From an uncultured Thiotrichales bacterium (GTDB lineage Bacteria; Pseudomonadota; Gammaproteobacteria; UWMA-0217): a DNA stretch of 64,000 nucleotides. The stretch lies in contig CAZUJU010000012.1 in the NCBI GenBank assembly GCA_964620675.1, positions 2,251 to 66,250 on the forward strand, written 5' to 3'. Positions 1 to 33,987 of the stretch are shown here, piece after piece. Numbering within the stretch: the stretch's first letter is position 1; each line of letters starts with the position of its first letter. The position numbers and the translations under genes were made by a program. Below the pieces are notes generated by a model, which worked only from the letters and a program-made list of their open reading frames with translations, did not search any database and was not told where the DNA came from.

Positions 1-1327
1 GTTCGAGATGACCATTGGCCTGCATCAGGTCGAGCCAGCCATCGAGGTCATAATCGAAAAACAACACGCCGAAGGTCAGCGCCAGCCGCGAAGCCGGGCC
101 GATCCCCTCCAGCATCGCCTCGTCGACGAACGGACCACGACCGCTGGAAGTCACATACAGCGAGGTCATCTCGTTGGCGAAATTGCCAATGGCCACGCCG
201 AGATCCGTGTCATTGCGGTACCACGCCGCGTCGATCCCCATCCCGCTGGTGGATTTGCCATCACGATCGTAGGCGATGCCCTCGAATGCACCGATCTCTT
301 CGAAGCGGCCATCGCCGAGGTTGCGGTAAAGAAAATTGCGCACGGTATCGTTGGCGACGATCAAATCGGTCCAACCGTCGCTGTCGAAGTCCACCGCCAC
401 CACGCCGAGCCCCTTACCCACTGCTTGGCCCGATTGCGGATCGACCACTTCAATGCCGGATTCGCGCGAAACATTCGTGAAGCGCCCATTGCCGTCGTTG
501 CGATAGAGCTGGTTCTGGGTGCCGACGAAATGCGTCGGCGCGCCGTAGGCCCGGCCCAGACCGGTCAGGCGAAAGTTGATTTCGAGGTCGATCTCGCGCG
601 ACCACTTCACGTAGTTGACGACCACGAGATCGAGATCGCCGTCGTTGTCGTAATCGACGAAGGTCGCCGCCGTGCTCCAATCGACCTCGCGCCCGGCGAC
701 CCCCGCGTCACGGGTCACGTCAACGAACCGGCCTTGGTCGTTGCGCAACAGCACATTCGACCCGAGCGCAGTGATGAAAAGATCGTCCCAGCCATCGTTA
801 TCGAAGTCGCCAACGGCCACGCCCATTCCGTAGAGCGATAGATCAATCCCGGCCGCGCGACTGACGTCGGCGAAGCGCCCATCGCCGAGGTTGCGGTACA
901 GCGCGAGCCGGGGTTCGCCGGGGCCGGCATGCCCGTCCCAATAGCGCGAGTTGACCAGCAGGATATCCGGGCGTCCGTCGTGATCGTAGTCGATGAACGC
1001 CGCGCCGGCGCCGATGGTCTCCGGCATCAGTCGCTCGCCGTAAGCCCCGTTGACATGCACAAAATCGATCCCGGCGGCGGCGGTTATATCGGTAAAGTGC
1101 ACCTGCGGTACCTCGTGGCGCGGCGCAGCCGGGAGCGGCTCCGGCGCCAGGTTGGTCAGCACCACATCGGGAATGTCCGGTGTCGCCACTTCCTGGTTGA
1201 ACCGCCACCAGATCGCCGCGGCGAGCATGAATAGCACCGCCAGCACCAGCAGTGAGCCGGCAAGGGCGCGACGGATGCGCGCCTCACCGGCGCGGACTCT
1301 GGAACGATCAGCCTCTGGTTGCTTCAC
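1..1327 (-). CDS. FG-GAP / ASPIC-UnbV (CRTAC1-like) repeat protein with N-terminal signal-anchor; C-terminus lies beyond window start
   Basis: Minus-strand frame (codon boundary 841|842) translates to ...FIDYDHDGRPDILLVNS...LYRNLGDGRFADVSRAAGIDLSLYGMGVAVGDFDNDGWDDLF..., which are classic FG-GAP beta-propeller blades. An upstream hydrophobic helix LAGSLLVLAVLFMLAAAIWW follows an Arg-rich stretch. The gene is absent from the ORF track because it runs off the window edge. Start is uncertain (GTG ending at 1327 or ATG ending at 1228). Confidence 0.65.
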   Translation of the reverse strand, partial: MKQPEADRSRVRAGEARIRRALAGSLLVLAVLFMLAAAIWWRFNQEVATPDIPDVVLTNLAPEPLPAAPRHEVPQVHFTDITAAAGIDFVHVNGAYGERLMPETIGAGAAFIDYDHDGRPDILLVNSRYWDGHAGPGEPRLALYRNLGDGRFADVSRAAGIDLSLYGMGVAVGDFDNDGWDDLFITALGSNVLLRNDQGRFVDVTRDAGVAGREVDWSTAATFVDYDNDGDLDLVVVNYVKWSREIDLEINFRLTGLGRAYGAPTHFVGTQNQLYRNDGNGRFTNVSRESGIEVVDPQSGQAVGKGLGVVAVDFDSDGWTDLIVANDTVRNFLYRNLGDGRFEEIGAFEGIAYDRDGKSTSGMGIDAAWYRNDTDLGVAIGNFANEMTSLYVTSSGRGPFVDEAMLEGIGPASRLALTFGVLFFDYDLDGWLDLMQANGHLE

Positions 1328-1373
1328 GGTTTTCGGTTCTGTCACTGGGGGTGCCGCGGTCGGCGCACCCGGT

Positions 1374-4154
1374 CTACTCGGTTGGTTCGGTTTGTAATGC
1401 CAGCTCCGCCGCGCGGACCGTGGGCAGTCCGAGCGCGTAGATCGCGAGCGGCGAAGCGGCGTGATCGGCAACGGGATCACGGCTACGCGCCAACCGCACC
1501 GCGCGGGCCACGGCCAAGTCGTCGGAGCGGTAGGTTTGATGCAGCGCCCGATGCCGCGCGGCCGCGTCGGAATCGCCCTGCTCGGTATGCGCCAGGGCGA
1601 GATTATAATGCGCCGCGGCATGCTCCGGGTCGATCTCCAACGCGCGCCGCAACCAGATTTCGGCGCGCGCCAGCAGTTCGGCGCGTTCGTCACGGCGCGC
1701 CTCGCCGCGGGCTTGCCGCGCCCGCTCCAGCAGGGTGCGACCCAACTGATTGAGCAGGTTGGTATCGTAGCCGAAGTCGAACCCGCGCGCCCGGGCCTCG
1801 GCGAACCCGGTTTGCGCAAGTGCTTCGAAGGTTTCGATCGCGGCGTCGAGACGGCCGTTCTGGGCATCGACCAACGCGCTCAGCCAAGCGATGGTCCAAG
1901 GTGCTGGGCGCGGTTCGAAATCGGCGGCGCGTTGCAACGCGGCCGCGGCCTCGCGCAGGCGGCCCTCCTGAAAATAGACCCGCGCCAGATTGAGCGGTCC
2001 GTCGCCACGCCCGAGCCGTTCCACCTCGGTAAAGGCGACCTCGGCCTGGCGCATCTGGCCGGTGGCGGCGCCGCCACCGCGTTCGCGCAGAAGCCCGATA
2101 CCGTAATCGTTCCAGCGCTCCCAAGCCGCGACCGGGAACACCTGTGACGGCGCCAATCCATCGCCGACGGGCAGCGTTACCCGGTCGCTGGCGAGTGTGA
2201 TGATCGGCAGATCATTGGTCGCGGCCGGGTCATCGCGCATAAAACGCACGAACGCCAGATCGAACTTGCGATATTGCACCCGCGCTTCGATCTCCAGCGG
2301 ACCCACCACATCGGCCGGCACCTCAAGCGCGTAATGGACGACGCTCGCCGCCCCCGGCGGAATCTGGTGGTCATAGAGCGGGACGAAGATATCCTGGGCG
2401 TTGCGCCGCTGGATACGGTTGCCGTCCTGATCCAGCACATACGCGTTCAGGAAATACGCCGTCGGATCGACCCCGCCGTCACGGTCGCGCGCACCACTGT
2501 GAGCCAGCAGCCGATCGCCCGCGCGCACCGTGACCTCCAGCCACAGTTCGTTGGAGTCGGACGTCCCCTGCGTCAGATGATGTCCAACCCGCAACGTGCG
2601 CACCACGGTTTCGAGGAGGTAATGCCGGCCCGGTTCGAGCACCGGCAGTGCCGGACGCAACGGCGCGTGCAGCCTGCCCTCGATCGTTCCGCCGTCGCGT
2701 AATCCAAACAAGTCGACCCGCACACTGCCTTCGAGCATCGCGCGGCGCGCCGCGTTACCGTCGTCGTCGAGCCCGACCCACTGCGGCACGGCGGTATTGG
2801 CCGCGGCGAATCCGTGATGATGCACACTCAGGCGGCCGGAACCGTCAAAGTCCCGCGCGGCCGGGTCGGAGGACGGCGTCAGCGCCATGTGACATTCGCT
2901 GCACCGACCAACCGCCTGCGCAGGGTAGTAAAAACTGTCGACTCGATGCCCCGAGACCCCGCTCTGCAGAAAGCTGTCGTAATGGTTCTGCCCCCGCAGC
3001 CAGCGATAGTGATTGAGCTCGATCGGGAGGTGGACCTTGTGGCAGGCGGAGCAGAATTCCGCGCTGCGATGGACCGGTTTGAGATAGGTGGCCTTGTGCA
3101 ATTCGGGCTTGGCCTTGATCAGCTGACGGTTGAGGTAGCGCAGCGCCGGCTGCGTGCTGAACGCAAACGGGTAGTTGATTGGATCCGCGAGGGTGTAGTC
3201 GCCGTTACCGCGCGGTGAGTTGACCTGCGTGATCGCGTGGCAAGCGACGCAAGTCAAACCGGCGTGGGCGGTCGGATCCTGATCGGGATCAAAATCCGCC
3301 CGCAGAAAGCGACCGTCGAACAGCGGCGCCGGGTCATGGCAGGCGGCGCACAAGGCACTGGCTTGCAGGTTGCCGTCGCGTCGCTGTGCCACCCGCCGCG
3401 TCTCCTCGACACTCGCGCGGTAAGCCGGGTTATTGAATGAACTCAAGCGGTGCATGCTCTGTTCGGCTTGACGCGCAATCTCACCGTGGCACTCGGCGCA
3501 GGTCTGGTCGGTCATCAAGCGCTCGGCCGGAATCCGCGTCTGGCCGCCCGCCAGCGTGGTCAGCGCCGGGTAGAACGGACGCGCGTCGGCCGTCGCGGGT
3601 GGGGGGGGTTCAATGAATCGCAGCGCGAGCATGCCAACGGCGAAACTGAGCGCGACTGCGCCCCACACCAAGCCCACGCCCCAATGAAGCGGCGGCCCAG
3701 CCAGGCGATGCAGGACAAACAGCCAGACGACGACAAACGGCAGCAGCACGTGGATCCAGTAGGCGGCACGACGCACCTCGGGATGGTTCACTTCAAACAC
3801 CCCGAAGCGCGTTAGCAGCAAGCCCGACAGCACCAGCAATGTGCCGCTGGCAAACAGCGCCAACCCCGCACGCGCCGCATAGCGGTTGGGACGCCGCCAC
3901 GCCCGCCGCAGATGGCGGATCGCGAACACCCCGAACGGTACACTCAGAATCAATCCGAGTAGCAGATGTAGCAGGAACATACCGAGGTAAAAGGCATCCT
4001 GCAGCGAACGCTGTTGCATCTGCTCGCCGACAGTGATCGCGGCAAGATAAGCCGAGTTCACCACGAGTAGCGCAAACAACAGCAATACGACGCCGAGCCA
4101 AGGCCTCAGCGCGCGCCCCACCGCCGAATGGCGCGGACGCTTGGGTTCGTTCAT
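1374..4154 (-). CDS. Membrane-anchored pentaheme cytochrome c with C-terminal TPR-like domain (about 927 aa)
   Basis: ORF 1374..4346. The likely start is the internal Met MNEPKRPRH..., whose ATG ends at 4154 and has GGAGGG 6 nt upstream. Five N-terminal TM helices are followed by five CxxCH motifs (CAECH, CAACH, CVACH, CSACH, CSECH). C-terminal TPR-like repeats are present (e.g. AAAHYNLALAHTEQGD). Confidence 0.75.
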   Translation of the reverse strand: MNEPKRPRHSAVGRALRPWLGVVLLLFALLVVNSAYLAAITVGEQMQQRSLQDAFYLGMFLLHLLLGLILSVPFGVFAIRHLRRAWRRPNRYAARAGLALFASGTLLVLSGLLLTRFGVFEVNHPEVRRAAYWIHVLLPFVVVWLFVLHRLAGPPLHWGVGLVWGAVALSFAVGMLALRFIEPPPPATADARPFYPALTTLAGGQTRIPAERLMTDQTCAECHGEIARQAEQSMHRLSSFNNPAYRASVEETRRVAQRRDGNLQASALCAACHDPAPLFDGRFLRADFDPDQDPTAHAGLTCVACHAITQVNSPRGNGDYTLADPINYPFAFSTQPALRYLNRQLIKAKPELHKATYLKPVHRSAEFCSACHKVHLPIELNHYRWLRGQNHYDSFLQSGVSGHRVDSFYYPAQAVGRCSECHMALTPSSDPAARDFDGSGRLSVHHHGFAAANTAVPQWVGLDDDGNAARRAMLEGSVRVDLFGLRDGGTIEGRLHAPLRPALPVLEPGRHYLLETVVRTLRVGHHLTQGTSDSNELWLEVTVRAGDRLLAHSGARDRDGGVDPTAYFLNAYVLDQDGNRIQRRNAQDIFVPLYDHQIPPGAASVVHYALEVPADVVGPLEIEARVQYRKFDLAFVRFMRDDPAATNDLPIITLASDRVTLPVGDGLAPSQVFPVAAWERWNDYGIGLLRERGGGAATGQMRQAEVAFTEVERLGRGDGPLNLARVYFQEGRLREAAAALQRAADFEPRPAPWTIAWLSALVDAQNGRLDAAIETFEALAQTGFAEARARGFDFGYDTNLLNQLGRTLLERARQARGEARRDERAELLARAEIWLRRALEIDPEHAAAHYNLALAHTEQGDSDAAARHRALHQTYRSDDLAVARAVRLARSRDPVADHAASPLAIYALGLPTVRAAELALQTEPTE

Positions 4155-4364
4155 ACGTCCCTCCGGGCGGCGCTCAAGAGTATCGGATTCCACCGTTGAT
4201 TTTAACGCCGCAGGACCGCCAGACGCTTGATTTTGATCATCACCTTTGGCCAGAACTATTCTCGGTTCAGCGGCGCATACAAAACGCCGTTCACATTTTT
4301 GTGTTGGTGTACAATCATAGCGCCGAAGAAATTCACATCCACACAAACAAAGGAGACCTATAAG

Positions 4365-4760
4365 ATGGCCGAACTATTTTCCGCGGACTGGATGCAAAGC
4401 TTTATGAATGCATGGAACGCCGAACCCGAGCTGTCGGACGCATTGGCGAAGATCAGCTTTAATTCGGTGATCGGATATGGCTACCCGGATGATTCCCAGC
4501 CGCGCGGCGTGCTCGACGTGCAAAACGGCAAAGCGGTGTCGGCCGGTGCCTACACCGGGCAGGAGCTGAACTGGGATCTGCGCGCAAAGCCCGAACAGTG
4601 GGAAAAATGGATGAAAAGCCCGCCGGGCATGACCGGGCTCGGGCTGGCCTTCACCACCGGCAAGATCAAATTCAAGGTCGGCGATTACGGCGCCATGCTG
4701 AAGGATCCGCGGATGGCCGGACCTTTCATCAAGAGCTTTTCGGTGATGGGCCGCGCCTGA
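4365..4760 (+). CDS. SCP2 sterol-binding domain protein (131 aa)
   Basis: Internal Met of ORF 4227..4760 is preceded by AAAGGAGA. The sequence ...LAFTTGKIKFKVGDYGAMLKDPRMAGPFIKSF is a typical SCP-2 C-terminus. The upstream region 4200-4360 is AT-rich and likely a promoter region. Confidence 0.8.
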   Translation: MAELFSADWMQSFMNAWNAEPELSDALAKISFNSVIGYGYPDDSQPRGVLDVQNGKAVSAGAYTGQELNWDLRAKPEQWEKWMKSPPGMTGLGLAFTTGKIKFKVGDYGAMLKDPRMAGPFIKSFSVMGRA

Positions 4761-6614: not shown

Positions 6615-6726
<112 letters not shown>

Positions 6727-6776
6727 CAACAAATGTAAACTTTGTTGACACGCGTGGCTGCGGATCACGCCTATCA
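6727..6776 (+). promoter_or_regulatory. Putative promoter region for 6874..7275: 7-bp inverted repeat caacaaa-N7-tttgttg overlapping a perfect -35 TTGACA (6744-6749); -10 not convincing
   Basis: caacaaa (6727-6733) and tttgttg (6741-6747) are reverse complements. TTGACA is at 6744-6749. No good TATAAT lies at 16-18 bp spacing (cgccta / tatcag only). Confidence 0.25.
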
Positions 6777-8898: not shown

Positions 8899-9699
8899 AT
8901 GTCGATCGAATGGGTCGCCGCCTACCTGTTACTAGGCGGCTTTGCGGGCTTTTTTGCCGGGCTGCTCGGGATAGGCGGCGGCGGCGTCATGGTGCCGATG
9001 CTGACCACGATTTTCGCCGCGCAGGCGTTTCCGCAGTCGCATCTGGTTCACCTCGCGCTCGGCACCTCAATGGCGGCGATCGTGATCACCGCCATTGCGA
9101 GCTTACGCGCACACCACGCCCACCGCGCCGTGTCGTGGTGGATCGTGAAACGAATTACCCCGGGCGTGTTGCTCGGTACCTTCGGCGGAACCTTTATTGC
9201 CGCCGCTGCCTCAACTGGCGCGCTGGCGATCTTTTTCGCCGCCTTCATGGGATACGTCGCGGTGCAGATGCTTCTCGATATCAAACCGAAGCCCGCGCGC
9301 GAGTTACCCGGGACACTCGGCATGAACGCGGTCGGGCTCGGTATCGGTGGCATCTCGGCCCTGGTCGCGATCGGCGGCGGGACACTGTCGGTGCCGTTCA
9401 TGACCTGGTGCAACGTCGGGTTGCGCCAGGCAATCGGTACTTCGGCGGCGATCGGGCTGCCTATCGCGCTGGCTGGCGCGTTCGGCTACGTGATCAACGG
9501 CTGGGGCGCGCGCGACTTGCCACCGTGGACGATAGGCTATGTCTATCTGCCCGCGCTGGTGCTGCTCGTAGCCACCAGCAGCCTGACCGCGCCGCTCGGC
9601 GCACGCATGGCCCACCGCCTCCCGGTTCGCACCTTGAAACGCGTGTTCGCCGGTGTGCTGGCGTTACTGTCGCTCAAAATGCTGCTGACGGTGTTGTAA
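8899..9699 (+). CDS. TauE/SafE family sulfite/anion exporter (DUF81) membrane protein
   Basis: MSIEWVAAYLLLGGFAGFFAGLLGIGGGGVMVPML... has the glycine-rich TM1 signature of the TauE/SafE family. There are 7-8 predicted TM helices, with an internal repeat (GLGIGGISALVAIGGGTLSVPFM). Confidence 0.85.
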   Translation: MSIEWVAAYLLLGGFAGFFAGLLGIGGGGVMVPMLTTIFAAQAFPQSHLVHLALGTSMAAIVITAIASLRAHHAHRAVSWWIVKRITPGVLLGTFGGTFIAAAASTGALAIFFAAFMGYVAVQMLLDIKPKPARELPGTLGMNAVGLGIGGISALVAIGGGTLSVPFMTWCNVGLRQAIGTSAAIGLPIALAGAFGYVINGWGARDLPPWTIGYVYLPALVLLVATSSLTAPLGARMAHRLPVRTLKRVFAGVLALLSLKMLLTVL

Positions 9700-9701
9700 G
9701 T

Positions 9702-10391
9702 TCAATGCGGGTCATCCACGCGTGCCAAGTACGCATCGGACCCGCTGCCGTTCGGTTTTCGGCCGTAGCGATTGATCAACATCCACACCAGGGTGATGAA
9801 TTCGGATTGATTGAGACGCGGCTCGCCAAGCACCGCCAGCAAGAACCGTCGCGCGCCGATGAACAGGGGCCAGACTGCGATCCGGCTGGAGCCGAAGGCA
9901 TCGAGCGCACCCCAGCCTTGCGTGGGTAGCTTGAGACAGTGTTTGAGGCGCGCCGCGTGGCGGAGTTGAACCGCCGCGAGGTCCGCGCTCAACGCCGACA
10001 AGGCGTCGACGGTCGCATCATCGAGCCCGATGCGCGCCAGCGGAAAGCCGTTTTCGTCGACCAGCAAGGCCTTGCCGATCGAACTCAGCCGGTGTAGCGG
10101 ATCCTGCAAATGGCGACCGAAACCCGCCTCGATGATACTGCGCGGGGCGCGAAAACCCTGCACCCACGCCAGAGTCTGGGCCTGGTGCAACAGTTGCAGC
10201 GCGTGCTGCTCATCCGCGACATGGAGCCAATGACTCAAGCGCGGCAGGTCGACTTGCGGCGTTTCGGCCTCGCCCAACAACGCCAGCAACAAGCGCCGCA
10301 ACGGTTCCGACTCGCAGCCGGTCACGGCGTAAAACGCCCCGGCGCTGGTTGGCTGCAAATAGAAGTGATCGATGAGTTTATAAGCGGACAT
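9702..10391 (-). CDS. Hypothetical protein, last gene of protoglobin/Roadblock operon (possible degenerate Roadblock-like segment)
   Basis: 229 aa with balanced composition. The segment ...KALLVDENGFPLARIGLDDATVDALSALSADLAAV is reminiscent of Roadblock/LC7 cores. It lies 6 nt downstream of the previous gene. Confidence 0.5.
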   Translation of the reverse strand: MSAYKLIDHFYLQPTSAGAFYAVTGCESEPLRRLLLALLGEAETPQVDLPRLSHWLHVADEQHALQLLHQAQTLAWVQGFRAPRSIIEAGFGRHLQDPLHRLSSIGKALLVDENGFPLARIGLDDATVDALSALSADLAAVQLRHAARLKHCLKLPTQGWGALDAFGSSRIAVWPLFIGARRFLLAVLGEPRLNQSEFITLVWMLINRYGRKPNGSGSDAYLARVDDPH

Positions 10392-10397
10392 CGCGGC

Positions 10398-11168
10398 TTA
10401 AACGAGTGCCGAAGTCCGGAGTCGAAACCTCGCACTCAGCTTGTCCCAAAGCTCGGGCAGCGCCAGCCTTCGGCCCGACAGGCGCGTGTAGGTCGCGGTA
10501 AAGGCATCCCCAAGGTCGTGACGTCGATACAGGGCGAGCAACTCCATGCTGGCGATCGGGTCACCAGGGTCGTCATCAAGCGTGCGCTCCAGCAACATCC
10601 GTGCATCGTCGATCCGGCCCTGTTCGATCCAGGCCCAGACCTGCTTGATCGCGGTACCCTGATCGGTATCGGCCGCGCCATCTCGTGCGTCGAGGGCGAC
10701 GATCGCGGTGACCCCTGCCACGCTACGCGACAGCAGCACACCCTGCATGTCTGGCGCAACTTCATCCGGCGCCACGCCACTGTCGAGTCGCCGCAGCAGC
10801 CATTCGAACTGGTCCTTGGGCAGCAAACTCAAGGTCTGCTCGAGCAGATTGACGCGCAGCGCACGGCCTTGGCGACCCAAAGCGATATTGAGATCCACCA
10901 GCGCGTGGAAACAACGCGCGGCGTCGGCTCGCGCCAAATGGAGCGAAACACGCTGAGCATGACTTAACAGGTCGCGCGGATTGCGGCAAATACGGCGCTC
11001 CAGCAGATCCGCGTGACGCACCCACGAGCCGATGTGCTCGGGATCCGGCAGCAGTTCCCGGGCCACCGGCAACAGTGCCGGTTCGACCCAAAAATTCCGC
11101 ACCGCCTCGAGCGAGCCCGCCGCGCCGGCGTCACTGCTCACGATTTCGAACACCGCATCCGCATCCAT
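10398..11168 (-). CDS. Hypothetical protein (256 aa), helical/TPR-like C-terminus
   Basis: There is no recognizable catalytic motif. The C-terminal part (...AWIEQGRIDDARMLLERTLDDDPGDPIASMELLALYRRHDLGDAF...) is TPR-like. It lies 12 nt downstream of the protoglobin gene. Confidence 0.5.
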   Translation of the reverse strand: MDADAVFEIVSSDAGAAGSLEAVRNFWVEPALLPVARELLPDPEHIGSWVRHADLLERRICRNPRDLLSHAQRVSLHLARADAARCFHALVDLNIALGRQGRALRVNLLEQTLSLLPKDQFEWLLRRLDSGVAPDEVAPDMQGVLLSRSVAGVTAIVALDARDGAADTDQGTAIKQVWAWIEQGRIDDARMLLERTLDDDPGDPIASMELLALYRRHDLGDAFTATYTRLSGRRLALPELWDKLSARFRLRTSALV

Positions 11169-11180
11169 CCGCGCTACCGA

Positions 11181-11750
11181 TTACCGCGCCGCCGACAGCA
11201 TGCTGTCGATCTCCAGGCTCACCAGGCGATACAGCAAGGTTTCGTTGAGCCCCGCGGCTTTATCGACCGCGGTGAACATATTGCGCTGGTAGCTTTCGGC
11301 GATCAGCGCCAGCACCACGGCCTGCAACGCATGGACGGCCTTGATCAGTTTCAGCGCCTCATCGGCCGGAAACGTGGCCAAGGCACGCTGGCCGAGGTAG
11401 GTCAGAATCCAGCCCCACATCCCCGCGACCATCGCGTTGTTGACGCGGCGTTTGATATGCACCAGCCCGACGTAGGTTTGCCATTCCCAATAGGGCAGAT
11501 CGAACGGGCCGGACAGGGTGCGCCGGTACCAGTCGCGCAAGGTCTGCTCGCGTTGCGGCCGCTCGTCATCGGTGAAGACCTTGCGCGTGGTCGGATGCTG
11601 GAACAGATGGTCGTAAAAGCCCTGTACCAGCCCATCCTCCCAGGTCAGCAGCACCTCTTTGTGACGAATGATCACATCGGCGTCGTCCTGGCCGAAACGC
11701 ACGGAATCCGGAATCTGATCGAGAATCTCCGCGGTTAAATTGTCGGTCAT
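11181..11750 (-). CDS. Stand-alone protoglobin / sensor-globin domain protein (189 aa)
   Basis: ...HKEVLLTWEDGLVQGFYDHLFQHPTTRKVF...LRDWYRRTLSGPFDLPYWEWQTYVGLVHIKRRV... matches the sensor-globin (Pfam Protoglobin) pattern: FYD.L...P.....F, W..L..G.YD, G..H.+.RV. The proximal His is likely in GLVHIKRRV. No output domain is present. Confidence 0.75.
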   Translation of the reverse strand: MTDNLTAEILDQIPDSVRFGQDDADVIIRHKEVLLTWEDGLVQGFYDHLFQHPTTRKVFTDDERPQREQTLRDWYRRTLSGPFDLPYWEWQTYVGLVHIKRRVNNAMVAGMWGWILTYLGQRALATFPADEALKLIKAVHALQAVVLALIAESYQRNMFTAVDKAAGLNETLLYRLVSLEIDSMLSAAR

Positions 11751-11771
11751 GCGATTTTTCCTCCGCCGGGG

Positions 11772-12140
11772 TTACATATTGAGGATGCGCGTGACTTCAG
11801 CGGCGGCCGCACTGGCCTCCAGCCGGACCAGGCCGAGATTGCCGCGCGCCGACGCGCGTACCGCGAGCACGCCACGCGGCCCCGCGAGGTAGATCAATAT
11901 CAAGCCGTCGCGTCCTTTTACCATGACTTCCTGGGTTTCACCGAGCGCGGCATTCGATGCAATGCGTCCGCCAAGACCCGAGGCGGCGGCGCTGACCGCG
12001 GCCACCCGCACGGCCTCCTCCTCGGGGAAATCGGTGGAAATCGAGAGTCCTTCATTGCTCGCGATCATCACCCCGGAGATATCGGGTACGTTTTCGCGCA
12101 ACTCGGTGTGGATCCGTTTCAATTCGTCGTTCTTGCTCAT
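11772..12140 (-). CDS. Roadblock/LC7 (MglB-like) domain protein
   Basis: 122 aa. ...ISGVMIASNEGLSISTDFPEEEAVRVAAVSAAASGLGGRIASNAALGETQEVMVKGRDGLILIYLAGPRGVLAVRA... is a typical Roadblock/LC7 alpha-beta-beta-alpha-beta core. Confidence 0.75.
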   Translation of the reverse strand: MSKNDELKRIHTELRENVPDISGVMIASNEGLSISTDFPEEEAVRVAAVSAAASGLGGRIASNAALGETQEVMVKGRDGLILIYLAGPRGVLAVRASARGNLGLVRLEASAAAAEVTRILNM

Positions 12141-12194
12141 GGCTTCATCCTGTGGGTGAGGTTTGGTGGTGGGTCGGTGGAAACGTTGTGGTGG

Positions 12195-13961
12195 TCAATC
12201 CGGGCCGTGGTGGGTGGGAACCAGCCGCTGCAAAGTCGCGCGCAAACGTTCGAAAAATCCGGTGCGCTTTGGCTGCGCGCGGTGACATGCGCCATACGGG
12301 CAATAATCGGGGGCATCGGGCGCCAGACGGGCCGCGCCGGGATTGGCGAGCTGGATCGATTGCAGCTCGCAACAGGCGTTATGGAAGCTGATCAGGGTTG
12401 CGTAGTCGACCCCGGTTTCGCGCGCGATGGTCGCGAAGTCCGCCGCTTGCGTCGTCATGAACGCCGCCAGCTGCAGATGCTGTGGGGTATGCGGAACCAC
12501 AGTGAAATCCGGGGCCTCGCGCAGTCGAATTTGCCCTTCCGGGTCGGCAAACTGGCACAGGCGACCGCGTGAGCCGTACAACGCCGCGCAATAGAACAAT
12601 TGCCAGAGCGGACGCGGTTTGACGCCCGGCAGCAGCTGCCCCGCGGTCACATCGCGGGTCTGAAATCGCCAGACCGGCACGGTATAAAGATCGGGAAACG
12701 CGTCCAATGCGGCCGGGAAAAGAAACGTCCCGGTAATCGGCAAGATCTGGAGCGGCGGATAATCCTCCGCAATCACCTCGGTGGCATGCCCCTGTGTCGT
12801 CAGCGCACGCACCAGTCCGAGCAGCCGAACCTGAGGGCGAAACAGGCGCGATGGGCGCGCGAGTTCGCGAATCGGGTGCGGTGACGACATCGGCAGCAAT
12901 CCCTGAAGCGACGGCTCCGCGTCCGGCGCATCCGCACCGATTGGCAACGACGCGTTGGAACGCGCGGTGCGGCCACCGATCGAAACCACGCTCGACACCA
13001 CGACAACCGGCGGCTCGCCGCGCGGCGCCGCCGGCACCGGGGTCGCCAACGCGACATCGATCACCGCTTCGTCATTGGCGAGCACCGCGGCTGGTGGCGC
13101 CTCCGGCGGCGACCGTTCCGGCGGCGAAAACGCCTCTGCGGCGACGCTCGCGCCGGTCGCAGCCCAGTGCGTCGACGTTCCGTCGCCCGCGCCGTCGCTT
13201 GCGGGGGAAACGCGACCCGCGACGGCGGTCAAGGGCGCAGCCGGCCAGCGCGGTTTGCCGCGACGAGGCGGCGGCGCCAACACGCGGCGCTCAGGGTTCG
13301 GACGGTAAAAGTCACTAATCAGCTGGGCGATGATTTCACCGGTGGGACTCGGATCGAGCACCCGCAGCGCCGCTGGCGATCCAACGCTCAGGCTGACGTT
13401 CTGCTCACTGGTGACGGTACTCGATGCGGCTCCGTCCCCTACACTGAACGGCTCCGTCAGCGGGGCCTGCGGCGATTCCATCGGCGCCAAGTCCCGATCT
13501 GCCGCGATCTCCGGCACCGGGACCACGGCGATCGCCGAGGTGGCCACCGGCGGCAGGGCCTCGCCCAGACGACCGGATTCGGCAAACCGTCGCGGTTGGC
13601 CTTGGCGGTATGCCAGCCGCAGCGAGCGCTCGATGGATTTCAGCGCCCCGACCAGTGCCGGGTAGGTCGCTGGTAGCGCGATCCGCGGTACCGGAAAGGC
13701 GGCGACACCGGTGTCCCGCGCCAACAGAACCACCGGCAAATCCGGGTCGGCAGTTGACGCAAGTGGCAACCAAAACGCGGCACCCGCCGTACTCTCGATA
13801 TCGATCAGCACCGCATCGGCCTCGGCCGCCGATGCGACGGTCCGCCAAGCGGACAGTTCGATCCCGCAGGCCAAATCCAGCACCGCCTGTTGCAGCGTAA
13901 GCGTCGCGGCGTCCAGCCCAATTGTCGCCAATGCGTAAGAATTCATGAATCGAGTATTCAA
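12195..13961 (-). CDS. Large protein with degenerate receiver (REC)-like N-terminus, approx. 200-aa Pro/Ala-rich linker and conserved C-terminal domain of unknown function (588 aa)
   Basis: The N-terminus (...AVLIDIESTAGAAFWLPLASTADPDLPVVLLARDTG...) resembles a CheY-like fold. The linker is Pro-rich (PPPRRGKPRWPAAPL...SPPERSPPEAPPAAV...). The C-terminal approx. 230 aa form a globular domain (..WRFQTRDVTAGQLLPGVKPRPLWQLFYCAALYG...). It is the first gene of the operon. Confidence 0.6.
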   Translation of the reverse strand: MNTRFMNSYALATIGLDAATLTLQQAVLDLACGIELSAWRTVASAAEADAVLIDIESTAGAAFWLPLASTADPDLPVVLLARDTGVAAFPVPRIALPATYPALVGALKSIERSLRLAYRQGQPRRFAESGRLGEALPPVATSAIAVVPVPEIAADRDLAPMESPQAPLTEPFSVGDGAASSTVTSEQNVSLSVGSPAALRVLDPSPTGEIIAQLISDFYRPNPERRVLAPPPRRGKPRWPAAPLTAVAGRVSPASDGAGDGTSTHWAATGASVAAEAFSPPERSPPEAPPAAVLANDEAVIDVALATPVPAAPRGEPPVVVVSSVVSIGGRTARSNASLPIGADAPDAEPSLQGLLPMSSPHPIRELARPSRLFRPQVRLLGLVRALTTQGHATEVIAEDYPPLQILPITGTFLFPAALDAFPDLYTVPVWRFQTRDVTAGQLLPGVKPRPLWQLFYCAALYGSRGRLCQFADPEGQIRLREAPDFTVVPHTPQHLQLAAFMTTQAADFATIARETGVDYATLISFHNACCELQSIQLANPGAARLAPDAPDYCPYGACHRAQPKRTGFFERLRATLQRLVPTHHGPD

Positions 13962-14457
13962 GCCAGCCGTCGGATCGGTGCAGGGCGCGGCGGATCACGG
14001 TAAGACACCGCTCCGTTCTCTGGACATTCTAGGAAATCCCCCGAGGCGGAAGTGTGAGCGAGAACGCATTTATCCCGCTGGAGGGTCTGAAATTCCCGAC
14101 GAATTTGACTTATGTCATGCGCGGCCAACTGCACAAGCATCGCGATTGCCCGGACTTTGCTCGGCGAAGTGCATCCACTCGGCGCTGCGCTGGCACTCGA
14201 CGTGAAGTACCCGATTACCACGAGGCGGCATGCCAGGTTGGGTAGGCGGCAACTCGACCACAGGGATGCGGTCGACGAGTCCCCAGGGGCGAGTTTTTGG
14301 CGTCTCCCGCTAACCCAGCCCGAGGCGGCTTTTATCCTCCGGGAAACGTCCTCGCAATGAAAGTCATCCCGATTCGCGGCTCGTGACTTACGGAAAATTG
14401 CCGCAAGTTTCGTGACCTCTGCTAGGCTTTGTGCCGTCCATCTTCAGGAACGTTTGC

Positions 14458-15438
14458 ATGCACCCGAGTCGATCGATTCCGCTCCCGTGGCAAGCTTTAT
14501 GGCTGCTGGCTTGGGCCGCCACGGTCGCAGCCGAACCGGTACCGGTGACAGTCAAACCGGTCGACGCGTTGACCTTCCTGCCCGAGACCTCGGCACCGGC
14601 CACGGTCACGAGCCTGAACCGCAGCACGCTGAGCGCGCAAATCACCGCGTCGATCGAGTCAATCGCGGTGCAGGTTGGGGACTCGGTCAAGGCAGGGCAG
14701 GTCCTGGTTCGCCTTGACTGTCGCGACCACGAACTCGCCGCGCAGAGCGCCTCGGTTCGCGCCACGCTGGCCGAAAAAGAGTCGCGGCGAGCGCAGTCGC
14801 TGAAGCAAAGCAGCAATATCGCCGAGCAGGCGGTTAATCAGGCTGAGGCGGAACTGGCGCAGGCTCGGGTGGCGCAACAACAGGCGCGATTGCAAGTTGA
14901 GCGGTGCGTGGTCAAGGCCCCATACAGCGGGGCGGTGCAAGCCCGGCTGGCGGGCGAAGGCCAGCTCGCCACGCCGGGCACGCCGTTGCTGGAACTGGTC
15001 GACACCCAGCACCTCGAAGTTTCGGCCCAAGCCCCGTCACTTCAGGCGGAGGCGCTCGCCACTGCCCGCGCCATTCATTTCGAGTCCCTGGGAAACCCGC
15101 TACCGGTCACCGTTCGCAGCGTTGCCCCATGGATCGATCCCGGCGCTCGCACGCGCGAAATCCGGCTGCGATTCACCGCCGGCACGACCGCGCCCGGCAC
15201 CGCGGGGCGTGTTGTGTGGCGCACCTCAGAGCCGCACTTGCCGTCCGACTTCTTGTCCCAACGCGCCGGTGCGATCGGAGTTCTGATCGTCGAACCCGGC
15301 GACCTCACCCGTTTCGTCCCCCTACCCGGTGCCGAACTCGGCCACCCTGCCCCGGTCGGCGAACTGCCGGCGGACGCGCGGATCATTATCGACAATCGTT
15401 TTGGTTTGCAGGACGGCGATCCGGTCAAAGTCCAGTAA
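14458..15438 (+). CDS. RND efflux membrane fusion protein (periplasmic adaptor subunit, HlyD family)
   Basis: Signal/anchor (MHPSRSIPLPWQALWLLAWAATVAA), then the lipoyl-like motifs VQVGDSVKAGQVLVRLD and CVVKAPYSGAV, with coiled-coil between them. It immediately precedes the RND pump. The ATG at 14458 is the internal Met of ORF 14431..15438. Confidence 0.85.
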   Translation: MHPSRSIPLPWQALWLLAWAATVAAEPVPVTVKPVDALTFLPETSAPATVTSLNRSTLSAQITASIESIAVQVGDSVKAGQVLVRLDCRDHELAAQSASVRATLAEKESRRAQSLKQSSNIAEQAVNQAEAELAQARVAQQQARLQVERCVVKAPYSGAVQARLAGEGQLATPGTPLLELVDTQHLEVSAQAPSLQAEALATARAIHFESLGNPLPVTVRSVAPWIDPGARTREIRLRFTAGTTAPGTAGRVVWRTSEPHLPSDFLSQRAGAIGVLIVEPGDLTRFVPLPGAELGHPAPVGELPADARIIIDNRFGLQDGDPVKVQ

Positions 15439-25750: not shown

Positions 25751-27262
25751 CTAACGACCGCCCAAGCCAAGACCACCGCGAACCAATCCGACCATGTAGG
25801 CGAGAATCTCACGGTCGGTCTCGCGCGCCTGACCCGAGACAAAGTACATACCCACAAATACCAATAAATACAACGCACCGCCAAAGAAGACCACCACGGC
25901 GTCTGGCGCGCCAGAAAATACATAAAACACCGGGATCGCAGCCACTGCCGCGATCATGAAAACCTTCAAGTAATACATCCACTCAAGCCGTGTCCCCAAA
26001 AAGGACGATGCAAACCAGGTATTCACCGTGGCCACTAGCAGCTTCGTCACCGCAAAGGCGATCAATGCCCCGGTCAAGCCCAAACTCGGAATCAGTAAGA
26101 ACGCGAGCAAGACATCAATCAAGGCCCCAAGCGCAAGACTTACCAGTAGCACCTGCTGCTTGTCACGCGTCAATAACACGCTGCTGGCGGACCACGATGC
26201 AATGGCAATTCCGGAAACAAACACGATCACCTGAAACGAAAACACCGAACCCGAATAATGCTCGCCGAACACCAGCTCGACGATCTCACGCGCGAAGACC
26301 ACACCGAAACCTACCAGGGGCGCCGCCAGCAGCACCAGATAGCGGGCAATCTCGCGATATTTCTGCGCTTGGGCCTCATCGCTCTCGAATCGCGCCCGCG
26401 CCATCAGCGGGATGATCAATCCGTTAAACACCCCGGGTACCAGGCTTACAGCGCTCACCGCCAGCACAAACGCCGCGTTGAAAAGCCCTGCTTCAGCCGC
26501 AAGCCCGTAGTAATTCAGGACAAAGACCTCGAGTTGTTTATCGACAATGAAATCCAGTATGAAGATCACCGACAGAAACTTGATCGAGCGCGTCATACCC
26601 CGTCGATACGCATCGTCAAGCCTCGCAGGCGGCGGCATCAGTTCAGCATTTAACGCCCGCCTGACCCACCACCACGAAACGAGCCCATAGATTGTCGCGA
26701 CGACCATGTACGCGAATACGAATCCCGCAACATCACCCCGCCACAAACCCACTCCGATCACCAACAACAAGTTGATTGGGTTGACGACGAGATTGATCAG
26801 CAGCTGAACTCTAAACGCTTCAAGCCCCTTGGCAACGCTGACATAGAACACATTGAGCGCTTTCGGAATGAACGCAATTGAAACCGCGAGCACCAACATC
26901 CAGAACTCGATCTCGTGCGCCTGGGAATCCAATGTGGTGATCCCGAGCCACAGTACCGTCAAGGCGACGGGAATCGCCGCAAACAACACCCTGATATGAA
27001 AACCGATGGCGTCCCGCACGCCGCCACCACAGCCACGGGCTCTGAGTTCCGCAACATAGCGAATGATGGAGGTATTCACGCCACCCGACACGAGGGCAAC
27101 CCCTAGCGCGGAAAGCCAAATAAACGAGCTATATACGCCATATTGCTCAGCCCCCAGAGCACGGGCAATTACGATCGTTATAATAAGCCCGATAAAATAT
27201 TCAAGATAAGACGCAGACGCATAAAGAAAGGTATTGTTCAGAACCGTCGATTTACCAGACAT
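25751..27262 (-). CDS. Polysaccharide/O-unit flippase (Wzx-like, MOP/PST family)
   Basis: About 12-14 TM helices. The start is probably the internal Met MSGKSTVLNNTFLYASASYLEYFIGLII... (ATG ending at 27262). Confidence 0.75.
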   Translation of the reverse strand: MSGKSTVLNNTFLYASASYLEYFIGLIITIVIARALGAEQYGVYSSFIWLSALGVALVSGGVNTSIIRYVAELRARGCGGGVRDAIGFHIRVLFAAIPVALTVLWLGITTLDSQAHEIEFWMLVLAVSIAFIPKALNVFYVSVAKGLEAFRVQLLINLVVNPINLLLVIGVGLWRGDVAGFVFAYMVVATIYGLVSWWWVRRALNAELMPPPARLDDAYRRGMTRSIKFLSVIFILDFIVDKQLEVFVLNYYGLAAEAGLFNAAFVLAVSAVSLVPGVFNGLIIPLMARARFESDEAQAQKYREIARYLVLLAAPLVGFGVVFAREIVELVFGEHYSGSVFSFQVIVFVSGIAIASWSASSVLLTRDKQQVLLVSLALGALIDVLLAFLLIPSLGLTGALIAFAVTKLLVATVNTWFASSFLGTRLEWMYYLKVFMIAAVAAIPVFYVFSGAPDAVVVFFGGALYLLVFVGMYFVSGQARETDREILAYMVGLVRGGLGLGGR

Positions 27263-27391
27263 GGTTACCCGAGGTGCAATAGAGTCAGACTCCGATGCGG
27301 GCGTCATACAGTTACGGACTTCCGTCTTAATTTATCACAAGATTCGGCCCATGATTGGCCCGACGATATGCCGAACGCGCTCAACACCTGA

Positions 27392-28564
27392 CTACCCAGC
27401 CACATAACTCCCACGTTGAACAATATAGTCACGATAGGCATTGGGATCTCCCGACTTTCCGGCTTCGGCCGCTTTGATAAGATTAAACATTTCACGCGCC
27501 GATACATAATGCAGCGCATATCGCTCACCGTCATTGAAATGGGTTTCAAGATAACGCCACAGCGACTCGAAGCCACCATTGAACAGCATGTCGGAGTTTT
27601 CCTCCATCGCACCGTGCGTGTAGCACTTGACAAAGAGCCACTCCGGCCGCCCTTTCACATGAATGCCACAATCCACCCATAACTTAATCCGACTGGGAAT
27701 CGGAGGTGCCGATGCCGACAGGTCACCATTCTCGATGCGCGGGAATATTCCGTATTTGCGATGTTTCCAGTTGAGCCCCAGCGGACCCTGTATGATCATC
27801 AAATCGCCCACGGGTGCGCCCCCAACGCGCACATCGACGCCATCGTCGTGCGATTTGGGTTGCTCGGGGTTATCGGTCGCATAATATATACTGTTGATTT
27901 TACGGGTCTGGGTCTCACTCGGCGCCGATGGCAACGTAAAATCCGCGTAGCATCCCGTTTCACGTAAAACCGTTAACTCATCATTCACGCCGCAATAACG
28001 CCCGTCGCAGCGCGAATTATCCAACGCCCAGTTACCGTGAATAAACCCATACACCGGTTGACCTGTGTTTGGATCGACCGACGCCGTGCCATGATTTTCG
28101 TGAAGTGCATGCATGAAAGTCAGCAGCTTTTCTCTCAATCCTGCCGAGGTGTCGTGATCATGATGCAAATGGACTTCGACTTCGCCGAGACCCTGACGAC
28201 AGATCTCCGTTACCCCATCAAGGTGCTCACGCTCATATTCTTCCTGCGGGTAAAAAAACGTATGCACCGGGTGCCTGCCATCCGCGTCGACATGCCGCCG
28301 CGCCACCCTTGGATACAAGGCCTTCCAGGTCGCGACGCGCTTTGCCTCGACCGCCGGATCGGGTCGGCCCCATTTGGGCTCGAAATGATCACCGATGCAA
28401 AACATGACATGGGTTACACCGGGAACCTTCGACCGGCGCTGCCGCCGTATCCACGACCAAATCCACTTATCAATATTTTTCGATTTCAACTCTAGCAGCA
28501 TGAGCCAGGCAAACGTGAGCATCGCCAACACCACGCCGGCGCCCAGGATAATTTCAACGTTCAT
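27392..28564 (-). CDS. Hypothetical N-terminally membrane-anchored protein (390 aa), possible divergent polysaccharide-modifying enzyme
   Basis: TM anchor (MNVEIILGAGVVLAMLTFAWLMLLELK), then a His/Cys-rich globular domain (HLHHDHDTS..., HGNWALDNSRCDGRYCG). It lies in the AT-richer central part of the polysaccharide locus. No confident family call. Confidence 0.45.
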   Translation of the reverse strand: MNVEIILGAGVVLAMLTFAWLMLLELKSKNIDKWIWSWIRRQRRSKVPGVTHVMFCIGDHFEPKWGRPDPAVEAKRVATWKALYPRVARRHVDADGRHPVHTFFYPQEEYEREHLDGVTEICRQGLGEVEVHLHHDHDTSAGLREKLLTFMHALHENHGTASVDPNTGQPVYGFIHGNWALDNSRCDGRYCGVNDELTVLRETGCYADFTLPSAPSETQTRKINSIYYATDNPEQPKSHDDGVDVRVGGAPVGDLMIIQGPLGLNWKHRKYGIFPRIENGDLSASAPPIPSRIKLWVDCGIHVKGRPEWLFVKCYTHGAMEENSDMLFNGGFESLWRYLETHFNDGERYALHYVSAREMFNLIKAAEAGKSGDPNAYRDYIVQRGSYVAG

Positions 28565-28732
28565 TCTTCTTTTCGTCCGTCACTAAAGTGGACCTCGACT
28601 GAATTGAGAACCGCGCCGAGACACCGCCCCAATCCACCCTAACGTTTTACAACATACAACCGTCGTTCGTTGACTCAGCTGACACGATTCTCCCGCACCC
28701 TGTATTGCCCCCGCGAAACCACGTTACCGCAT

Positions 28733-30127
28733 TCAATTCAGGATGCGGATCAGGATCCACACCAGCATTATCAACACCACCACGCTGGCCAGTGCCGCCA
28801 GAAGTACTTTTCCGAATGCCAGGTAACACCGGCCTTGCGTGCATATCGACGTGCTCTCAATGGCAAGACCCAGACCCGCTGTTGCCAACGCCTGAATCGC
28901 GAAGACATAGATCGAATAGCTCTGACTCAGAAAAAAGGCACAGACCATCAACCCTGCAAGCGCCATGAAGGCCGTTTCGCCCAACGCCTGCGCTTGTTGC
29001 TCGTTCACCCTCGGCGAGACCCTTGTCGAGGCATCATCACCGACCGATTGCCGTCGACTGACGCCAGCGGTCACCGAAGCGTTTGACCGTGTGTTGCGCC
29101 TGCCCGGTGCCGGCGCGATCTCGACGCCGTTCGCTTCCCCACACCGCGACGCTCCAAACACGCGCGCGAGTCCATACATATTCGCCACCAATAACCCAGT
29201 CCAAAGCACGTATCCGAGAATGCCCACCTCGGCCAGGATCAAGATGAACGAGTTGTGCGCGGTCAGCCAATTAAACTCGACGAAGCGATCATAGCCGACT
29301 CCGAGCACCGGATGTGTGAAGAACATTTGAATACCCGCGTACCACGAGTCCAATCGTCCGACCGACGACGCGTCAGAACCGAACTCCTGCGTGACGCGTA
29401 CACTGATCAATGCGATCAGTACCGGCAACAAAGCGCTACCCAGAATCGCAATCTTGCGTCCGTATTGCTTGTACAAGGCCAACAAGCCGACCAGTCCGAG
29501 GCCAATCATCGCGCCTCGCGAATTCGTGAGGTAAATCGCATACACCAGCAATCCGAGTAGAACCGCATGAACCACGAACTCCAATAGGCCGGAAGAGCGC
29601 CGCCACCAAGCAATATAGACCGGCGCGATACTCACCAGGAACAGACCGAGATCGTTGGGATCACGAAAAATTCCGACGTAAATCCCGCGCTTGACTCCGT
29701 TTTCGACCAGCACCTCAATCCCGGTCCAACCGACCGTAAAGTGATAGACCTGTATCGTATGTAACACGATTGCCAAGCCGAACAGCGCGATGGCTTCCCA
29801 GTACACGCGGACATCCCTCACGGAGCGTGCGGTACTCGCGATGAGAACGAATAGCCACACGCCGGGGAAGAAGGTCTTGATGACATGGTCCAACCCAGAG
29901 AGCCCCGAATTGACCAGACTGGATAAGGCAATGACCAGACTCAGTAGCGCAACAATCAGCATTTGCGGGGTATCGAAGCGCTTGCCGCCCGTAAAAAGCC
30001 ACACCACGGTCGCGAGTGCAAGCGCCAGATTCAATACCGGCAACCCGAACAGGAATGGAACGAACTCCTGAGGTCGGACGAGGATCACGCCGAGAGCAAG
30101 CACGATCCAGGGTGTGACAGGGCTCAT
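28733..30127 (-). CDS. O-antigen ligase / Wzy-type polymerase family membrane protein
   Basis: About 12 TM helices with a large periplasmic loop and Wzy_C-like region (...HNSFILILAEVGILGYVLWTGLLVANMYGL...). The start is uncertain (ORF 28733..30208; internal Met at 30127). The region is AT-richer than the flanks. Confidence 0.65.
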   Translation of the reverse strand: MSPVTPWIVLALGVILVRPQEFVPFLFGLPVLNLALALATVVWLFTGGKRFDTPQMLIVALLSLVIALSSLVNSGLSGLDHVIKTFFPGVWLFVLIASTARSVRDVRVYWEAIALFGLAIVLHTIQVYHFTVGWTGIEVLVENGVKRGIYVGIFRDPNDLGLFLVSIAPVYIAWWRRSSGLLEFVVHAVLLGLLVYAIYLTNSRGAMIGLGLVGLLALYKQYGRKIAILGSALLPVLIALISVRVTQEFGSDASSVGRLDSWYAGIQMFFTHPVLGVGYDRFVEFNWLTAHNSFILILAEVGILGYVLWTGLLVANMYGLARVFGASRCGEANGVEIAPAPGRRNTRSNASVTAGVSRRQSVGDDASTRVSPRVNEQQAQALGETAFMALAGLMVCAFFLSQSYSIYVFAIQALATAGLGLAIESTSICTQGRCYLAFGKVLLAALASVVVLIMLVWILIRILN

Positions 30128-30208
30128 CGCTTCGCATCGAAGCGCCGCGGAGGACCGTTGCTTGACTGAGGGGCTCGAATGCGTCGCCACTGACGTTTCG
30201 GCTGGCAT

Positions 30209-31342: not shown

Positions 31343-31402
31343 TGCGCGCTGTCCCGCGCTGGTCCGCGGCTCCGCGCATCATTCATGTCGCTTGCCATGA
31401 TT

Positions 31403-32278: not shown

Positions 32279-32286
32279 AAACTGAC

Positions 32287-33801: not shown

Positions 33802-33987
33802 TTCAACGTCTAACCGAGTTCAATCATTAGGTTACCGAGCGCAGAGACCGAATACCCGGGAACGCCGCTTGCGCGATCAGGATTGTGCCGCTGGCCGCAA
33901 TGTAAACGGTCCAGTTTAGGCAGAACCCTCGCGCCAAAGTTCATGCGCAACGCCCGGTCAGCCCGCATGTCCAAGAATTCGCGACCA

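Follow-up and report, generated by a model that had tools for sequence, protein, structure and literature searches.

A protoglobin-bearing Roadblock gene cluster of a Thiotrichales bacterium as a probable GTPase-less branch of the MglA Group 3 family

What can a stand-alone sensor globin do in a compact gene cluster that encodes two Roadblock-fold proteins and no GTPase? The question is raised by five minus-strand genes packed within positions 9702-13961 of a 64-kb stretch of DNA (hereafter, the window), which lies on a contig of a metagenome-assembled genome (MAG) from a stromatolite metagenome, labelled in its source record as a Thiotrichales bacterium. A first-pass annotation, made from the sequence alone, had presented these genes as a candidate heme-based signalling module outside any system known to its author. 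Our comparison assigns the backbone of the cluster to a catalogued family, MglA Group 3 (Wuichet & Søgaard-Andersen 2014; PMC4316618). It suggests, with a probability of about 0.6, that the five genes represent a derived branch of this family which has lost its GTPase gene and in which the globin acts as a gas or redox input.

The five genes and their affinity to MglA Group 3

The list of open reading frames (ORFs) gives gaps of 54, 21, 12 and 6 nt between the five genes, here called g1 to g5, in agreement with the first-pass annotation. Its two firm domain calls were also sound. The gene g2 (11772-12140) encodes a single-domain, MglB-type Roadblock/LC7 protein of 122 aa (Pfam Robl_LC7, E 2.3e-16, 59.7 bits, cut-off 23), and g3 (11181-11750) encodes a stand-alone sensor globin of 189 aa (Pfam Protoglobin, residues 10-157, E 1.1e-19, 71.4 bits, cut-off 25). 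The products of g4 (10398-11168, 256 aa) and g5 (9702-10391, 229 aa), which had been left as unknown proteins, can now be described as a conserved TPR-like partner and a second MglB-like protein, respectively. The remaining gene, g1 (12195-13946, probable extent), encodes the protein that we equate below with the domain-of-unknown-function (DUF) protein of Group 3 systems. NCBIfam returned zero matches for all five proteins.

The same five-gene arrangement is present in a second (sister) MAG, which was found through its 54%-identical g1 orthologue. The ratios of nonsynonymous to synonymous substitution rates (dN/dS) between the two genomes are 0.21 for g1, 0.002 for g2, 0.05 for g3, 0.12 for g4 and 0.10 for g5; they are approximate, since dS exceeds 1 and synonymous divergence is saturated. 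All five genes are under purifying selection, and g2 is still 99.2% identical to its sister-MAG orthologue at this saturated dS. The synteny between the two MAGs reaches into the flanking genes as well; therefore this pair alone cannot prove conservation of the operon, and more distant loci are needed.

Such loci were fetched with a four-sequence alignment of g5, which yielded 14 from species-representative genomes and 80 from metagenomes. Their ORFs were classified by phmmer, and loci with at least 90% g5 identity were collapsed, leaving 64 non-redundant groups across which the backbone of the cluster is conserved. In Methylomagnum ishizawai and another genome, genes for a 248-262-aa and a ~420-aa protein come first; a 180-aa small GTPase and the g5 homologue follow, and after these a Roadblock protein of 120 aa, then stand-alone PAS and finally PhnD-like. 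The cluster of a Thiodiazotropha genome has no GTPase, and its genes for ODP and Roadblock proteins are divergent from those for a 451-aa, a 254-aa and a g5-like protein. All-against-all BLAST identified the 248-262-aa proteins as homologues of g4, and the 420-aa and 451-aa proteins as homologues of g1. The groups with a GTPase (class A) number 49 of the 64 and usually have the order g4-g1-GTPase-g5-Robl-sensor, the GTPase gene sitting between g1 and g5 and, in three class-A loci examined, abutting or overlapping g5. A further 13 groups have no GTPase (class B), and two are too short to call. The conserved core of the family is g1, g4, g5 and g2. It had been considered that an adjacent GTPase might explain the cluster; this is true of the family, in which about four-fifths of the relatives encode a small GTPase in the cluster, and is not the case in the window.

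The GTPase-linked loci lead to MglA Group 3. Wuichet and Søgaard-Andersen describe this group from beta- and gamma-proteobacteria as a conserved uncharacterised protein together with MglA and one or two MglBs (PMC4316618). The uncharacterised protein has conserved N- and C-terminal regions around a variable linker, predicted by Phyre2 to be receiver-like and winged helix-turn-helix-like (wHTH-like), and the GTPases of Groups 2 and 3 have a G4 motif deviating from NKxD and the G5 motif DAR. The hosts include Neisseria, Xanthomonas, Stenotrophomonas, Acinetobacter, Acidithiobacillus and many methanotrophs, and the Group 3 entries of their table include MEALZ_2464 (given as '<MglB<MglB<MglA<DUF, 178 aa'), Metme_1347, NMB0476, TERTU_4498 and Afe_2575. 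Class-A GTPases carry the motifs GPVGAGKT and YGTPGQERF, a G4 of the form GVT[QR][MT]D in place of NKxD, and EVDAR at G5 (Pfam ATP_bind_1 9.6e-13, Ras 1.9e-7). These are the deviations given for Groups 2 and 3 in the census, which supports the link. A representative class-A locus, from Methylotuvimicrobium alcaliphilum (L026), encodes a 178-aa GTPase in the order g4-g1-GTPase-g5-Robl-PAS-PhnD, and to judge from organism, length and gene order it would be the MEALZ_2464 locus itself. As its order matches that entry, class A corresponds to Group 3, with g1 as its DUF protein and g5 and g2 as its two MglBs. The Group 3 description, in the part available, mentions neither the TPR-like g4 nor any sensor gene.

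The window cluster shares with Group 3, as described there, the receiver-like, linker and conserved C-terminal architecture of the DUF protein, the two Roadblock/MglB proteins and a host within the range of the group, here a gamma-proteobacterium like those that carry the related loci. It differs in that neither the cluster nor the 64-kb window contains an MglA gene, that the order is rearranged to g1-Robl-globin-g4-g5, and that a protoglobin gene is inserted. The kinship of the individual proteins was recovered by profile hidden Markov models (HMMs) built from GTPase-linked loci only. The HMM of 42 class-A g1 homologues matches window g1 (E 1.5e-9) in the N-terminal as well as the C-terminal domain, that for g4 finds window g4 at E 1.1e-34, and that of 48 class-A Roadblock proteins finds window g2 at E 2.9e-18.

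The longest ORF of g1 starts with TTG at 13961 and encodes 588 aa (12195-13961), the length given in the first-pass annotation. The database gene call has 583 aa and the orthologue begins with MNSYALAT; because both start there, the ATG at 13946 is the likelier start. Among 5.8 billion clustered proteins, the only two matches to g1 are g1 itself and the 54%-identical protein. It consists of an N-terminal domain (residues ~1-115), a linker (~116-360) and a conserved C-terminal domain (~360-583). The linker, with 15.5% Pro, 16.7% Ala and 10.6% Ser over residues 116-360, is indeed Pro-rich as annotated. The REC-like N-terminus of the annotation is seen with the family profile and not with Pfam, which found nothing real on g1 and no Response_reg domain. 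The top seven matches of the g1 family profile in the PDB are all receiver domains, with 8svz the best (E 4e-4) and YycF at 3.5e-3, and in the alignment with these receivers D49 falls on the phospho-acceptor Asp. The receiver Ser/Thr and Lys positions are kept in class A (S, KKP) and are Ala76 and Leu91 in the window; because of these two replacements, the N-terminal domain of window g1 is probably a pseudo-receiver.

The g4 protein is all-helical, with a TPR-like C-terminus marked by weak Pfam matches to TPR_16, TPR_14 and TPR_19 at residues 181-229. Its profile gave weak TPR-type matches only in the PDB, and the family alignment revealed an invariant N-terminal motif, ...RNPRDLLSH.QR.... For g5, Pfam gave a sub-threshold Robl_LC7 match (0.0028). 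Its AlphaFold model is confident (pLDDT 84.7, pTM 0.81) and comprises a compact, mainly helical N-terminal domain (~1-80) followed by a Roadblock domain (~95-210). Foldseek searches with this model returned archaeal Roadblock proteins and MglB at the top, including chains of MglA-MglB complexes, and model and fold search together support g5 as a second MglB-like Roadblock-fold protein. A profile-profile comparison of the g5 N-terminal domain with the g1 C-terminal domain found no relation. The g5 protein has 89 gamma-proteobacterial homologues, among them proteins of Thiodiazotropha, Chromatiales, Methylomagnum and Thiolapillus, and is 38-42% identical to the GTPase-linked ones.

In four class-A loci (L050, L051, L084 and L086, at ~8.7-9.6 kb of each) the single-domain Roadblock gene is present in two tandem copies, giving three MglB-type genes in total. 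These clusters recall the three mglB genes reported in the Group 3 systems of Snodgrassella and Neisseria.

The Streptomyces conservons (CvnA-D), another system with a Roadblock component, were considered and rejected, as the window lacks a CvnA kinase, a protein of the DUF742 type and a CvnD GTPase. The likeness is limited to CvnB. Pfam found no HATPase, HisKA or DUF742 domain in the five window proteins, there is no GTPase in the window, and the actinobacterial conservons have no g1 and g4 proteins.

Stand-alone sensors beside the Roadblock gene

In the groups where both genes are visible, a sensor gene directly adjoins the single-domain Roadblock gene g2 without exception (45 of 45). Across the 64 loci, the sensor is a PAS protein in 30, PAS together with a globin in four, a globin in five, CZB in three and ODP in four. 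Class A accounts for the 30 PAS loci, which also have a PhnD-like gene, the four with PAS and globin, three with globin and three with CZB, and nine class-A groups show no sensor. Class B has ODP in four groups and globin in two, and in seven the sensor is not visible on the short contigs. Pfam supported these assignments (CZB 3.5e-13 and 2e-13, ODP 2.9e-70, PAS_3 3.4e-16, class-A Protoglobin 3.1e-22). The slot beside g2 is filled by small stand-alone sensors of kinds that are usually fused to chemoreceptors or cyclases. ODP, a di-iron protein, is an O2/iron sensor of a chemotaxis system. CZB domains are known from the literature as redox/HOCl sensors.

The PhnD-like (Phosphonate-bd) protein of 248-255 aa (Pfam 2.5e-38) always occurs with a stand-alone PAS sensor (for example at 11680-12429 of locus L006; ~34 loci) and is apparently cytoplasmic, with no signal peptide by eye. 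In a single class-A case (L082 8938-16257) the cluster adjoins a Pil-Chp-type chemosensory cluster: g2 is followed by a PilG-like response regulator with a g1-like N-terminal extension and a PilH-like CheY (both Pfam-checked), and further on by a CheW-like protein (by eye), a 1212-aa protein and a 504-aa chemoreceptor-like protein (by eye).

The globin of the window belongs to the same fold family as the globin-coupled sensors HemAT, GsGCS and AfGcHK. Its best solved relatives are the globin of the Geobacter globin-coupled sensor (2w31, 3.5e-5) and that of AfGcHK (5ohe, 6.4e-5), and alignment to both places Tyr46 at B10, within FYD, and the proximal His98 at F8, within VGLVHIK. At E11, g3 has Leu, while GsGCS and the class-A globins have His. 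In contrast to the globin-coupled sensors, g3 has no fused transmitter (MCP, GGDEF, kinase or STAS) and consists of the globin domain with a C-terminal tail of ~30 residues, a length typical of single-domain protoglobins, so that any coupling would go through the separate Roadblock protein. A globin of the RsbR/stressosome type, suggested by a PDB match to 7o0i (E 0.037), was rejected, as no STAS or partner-switch genes are present.

The nearest relatives of g3 among 1.84 billion representative proteins are likewise stand-alone proteins of ~185-205 aa that align end to end. Two of them have a readable context, with no Roadblock linkage and in unrelated settings, one beside archaeal-type genes (MtrH, ribosomal P0). 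The window globin is 21-31% identical to the class-A globins, which share 45-56% among themselves. To judge from this low identity and from the unrelated contexts of its nearest relatives, the window globin was recruited separately from those of class A. By eye, the last ~30 residues of g3 (window 11181-11276) and the class-A globins of L020, L039, L079 and L089 have in common a short stretch, G-[LM]-[NS]-x-[TA]-L-[LF]-x-x-L, which reads AGLNETLLYRL in g3 and TGMSRTLFNNL in the class-A globins. It lies outside the globin fold and may serve as a docking helix.

The first-pass annotation had proposed that the globin feeds a Roadblock-based relay, and comparison speaks for this idea in two ways, through the constant adjacency of sensor and Roadblock gene and through a published fusion. 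HGbRL of Methylacidiphilum infernorum is a globin fused to a Roadblock/LC7 domain, for which the authors proposed that a conformational change of the globin is relayed to the Roadblock part (PMC4476040). Both cases pair a haem globin with a Roadblock domain. HGbRL differs in being one polypeptide with an HGbI-type globin, reported from one genus only and as co-operonic with a methyltransferase, whereas the window has two separate genes inside a Group 3-type cluster and a globin of the protoglobin type. Taken together, the globin is most likely the gas or redox input to the Roadblock pair.

A search of the open full-text literature, with subscription-only papers outside its scope, did not find the combination of Roadblock and protoglobin. 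The top-ranked open full-text papers on Roadblock/MglB with CZB, ODP or sensor globin contained no sensor term, and the main CZB survey knows 'CZB-only' proteins and mentions neither Roadblock nor GTPase. The backbone of the cluster has been catalogued since 2014 but not characterised, and in the searchable open literature there appears to be no description of the sensor slot, of g4 as a partner or of the clade without GTPase. For Group 3 systems, whose input and output have both remained unknown since they were catalogued, the sensor slot provides a concrete hypothesis for the input. Interchangeable PAS, CZB, ODP and protoglobin proteins, otherwise wired to chemoreceptors and cyclases, suggest that an oxygen or redox signal enters through the Roadblock protein.

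Loss of the GTPase and the possible course of a relay

A neighbour-joining tree of 92 g5 sequences placed the verified GTPase-less loci in one clade, split from class A at the midpoint root. This clade of 12 loci comprises the window, sister MAGs, Thiodiazotropha, Woeseiaceae and others. By this tree, with a sole exception, the GTPase gene was essentially lost once. The exception, at 10-1391 of the 1.9-kb metagenome contig L105, has its g5 inside the GTPase-containing clade and the C-terminus of g1 directly before g5, leaving no room for a GTPase gene, and may be a second, independent loss. In the GTPase-less clade, clusters with ODP are widespread, and those with a globin occur in the lineage of the window only.

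The annotation's statement that the cluster encodes no GTPase, kinase, GGDEF or MCP protein was borne out, and none adjoins it either, because TauE and RND-efflux genes bound the cluster. A tblastn search with the family GTPase against the whole window gave P-loop scraps only, and no GTPase was found within 8-10 kb of any GTPase-less locus. A homology search with the GTPase profile gave 6412 matches. The best 120 of these (66-95% identical) are taken up by close relatives from methanotrophs, with no entry bearing the name of the window's MAG, so that this search is uninformative on a GTPase elsewhere; it did bring up the 178-aa protein of M. alcaliphilum.

The g5 protein itself may carry a trace of the loss. 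Of its 43 positions conserved at 95% or more in class A, six have another residue in 70% or more of class B, and five of these six lie at residues 123-152, in the beta2/alpha2 region of the Roadblock domain. Such a pattern is only suggestive, and would be expected if one binding partner had gone and the function were otherwise retained.

How could a signal pass through such a cluster? We infer the globin-Roadblock contact, the pairing of the Roadblock proteins, the direction of signalling and the output as follows. Haem ligation or the redox state (O2, NO or CO) would change the g3 globin; the changed globin would act on g2 and on the g2/g5 Roadblock platform; and the platform would hand its state to g1 and g4 as scaffold or effector. 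In the clade of the window, this relay would do without a dedicated GTPase, similar to the Roadblock paralogue MglC in Myxococcus, and if the rest holds we give this step somewhat better than an even chance. The more specific form, in which stand-alone O2/redox sensors, the protoglobin in the window and ODP in Thiodiazotropha and Woeseiaceae, bind a hetero-Roadblock pair that directly switches the receiver-like/wHTH-like protein, is a tentative proposal with the odds against it.

The Myxococcus xanthus module (MglA, MglB, MglC, RomR/RomX) is instructive in this respect. RomR, like g1, combines its receiver domain with a Pro-rich linker and a C-terminal output region; the two are set side by side here for their architecture, with no sequence comparison. 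[quoted passage not shown] It differs from the window cluster in that its GTPase belongs to another MglA group and that no stand-alone gas sensor is known for it, the input coming through the Frz chemosensory system. As to outputs, when an orphan MglB belonging to a Snodgrassella Group 3 system was mutated, a behaviour linked to type IV pili changed (PMC11112851). In Neisseria, NMB0478, probably the g5 homologue from its operon position, showed DNA binding in an overlay assay, and deleting it had no effect on piliation or competence (PMC2885667).

Several points weigh against reading the cluster as a GTPase-less, globin-fed relay. Gene adjacency is only circumstantial evidence for an interaction of globin and Roadblock protein, and haem binding by g3 is deduced from two aligned residues. 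Nine GTPase-linked loci show no sensor gene, several of them with unrelated genes or no ORF after g2; therefore the sensor is accessory and not part of the core. The AlphaFold model of g1, made from two sequences, reached a pLDDT of 31.6 and is too poor for use, and the wHTH-like nature of its C-terminus is a prediction taken from the literature only. The g5 tree is midpoint-rooted, built by neighbour-joining and without support values. The absence of a GTPase in the MAG of the window refers to the 64-kb window, and one may be encoded elsewhere in that MAG. Finally, at least 90% of class B retains 24 of the 43 class-A-conserved g5 positions, among them the invariant Arg144, and with them g5 could still bind the same partner.

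These last points lead to an alternative that leaves family and globin input as they are and lets the relay end on an MglA-type GTPase whose gene lies elsewhere in the genome, on which g2 and g5 would act in trans as GAP or guanine nucleotide exchange factor after the linkage was lost. Orphan MglBs are common, as in the 2014 census only 421 of 749 MglB homologues were coupled to MglA (PMC4316618), and the orphan MglB of Snodgrassella belongs functionally to a Group 3 system (PMC11112851). The retained g5 positions would be explained, and Thiodiazotropha lineages carry either type of cluster. On the other side stands the lack of a GTPase in the window and near all GTPase-less loci, and also the class-specific replacement of conserved acidic residues at beta2/alpha2 of the g5 Roadblock domain. 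Moreover, species-representative genomes, including the complete Woeseiaceae chromosome OZ271838.1 with the GTPase-less type only, have one locus each, in a scan that was aimed at g5 and not at GTPases and misses some relatives. We regard a GTPase acting in trans as a real but doubtful possibility.

The globin could also be no input at all and have a metabolic role as a haem protein, for example in buffering O2, in NO detoxification or in sulfide chemistry, its gene just happening to be co-transcribed. It has no output domain, and its two close relatives with readable context are stand-alone globins in unrelated settings. To our knowledge, single-domain protoglobins have no settled function. 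The same position beside g2, however, holds PAS, CZB or ODP in other loci, unrelated folds that share sensing and not catalysis of one reaction, and globins entered it on at least two separate occasions; the published fusion further argues for a direct signalling link (PMC4476040). A metabolic globin is therefore quite improbable. Still more improbable, to the point of being nearly negligible, is that the cluster is what remains of a decaying, non-functional Group 3 system. For this speak the missing GTPase gene and the loss of the Ser/Thr and Lys positions from the receiver-like domain of g1 in this lineage. Against it, all five ORFs are intact with dN/dS of 0.002-0.21 against the sister genome, lineages of Thiotrichales, Thiodiazotropha and Woeseiaceae have all kept the layout without GTPase, and a new sensor gene was gained after the loss of the GTPase.

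The GTPase-less clade is a natural experiment on whether bacterial Roadblock platforms can signal without a GTPase, a question that bears on the evolution of the eukaryotic Ragulator- and longin-type platforms. A relay of the more specific form given above, in sulfur-oxidising and sediment gamma-proteobacteria, would be a new type of bacterial signalling pathway, using Roadblock domains instead of phosphorylation, second messengers or nucleotide switching.

Surroundings of the cluster and other features

On the g5 side, the cluster meets a convergent TauE gene whose stop codon lies 2 nt from that of g5. On the g1 side, a divergent RND-efflux pair (RND membrane-fusion/AcrB) begins beyond a 484-bp intergenic region (13947-14430), which from the gene layout is presumed to be the promoter region of the five-gene unit. 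No sigma-70-like site and no terminator signal above shuffled background was found in it, and Rfam had no match in window 9000-15000. There is no sign of a defence system, because PADLOC gave zero matches for the five genes.

In the class-A locus L010, a set resembling a diversity-generating retroelement (31-4690) lies ~3 kb upstream of the cluster and comprises an RVT_1 reverse transcriptase, bAvd and target proteins with FGE-sulfatase domains, one of them with a KAP NTPase domain. Elsewhere in the window, an intergenic stretch contains at 6615-6727 a 7-bp tandem repeat, CTCCTGC, in 16 copies with 94% matches, which yields minus-strand ORFs with an 'RRQETGD' repeat. The minus-strand block at 25751-40710 has a GC content of 0.53-0.58, against ~0.62-0.65 elsewhere, and encodes polysaccharide functions: a Wzx-like flippase, a Wzy_C polymerase/ligase, GT2 and GT4 glycosyltransferases, a tyrosine-kinase-like P-loop protein, a TPR protein, an AAA_22 protein and a Bac_transf priming transferase. 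This block may be a horizontally acquired island for exopolysaccharide or O-antigen.

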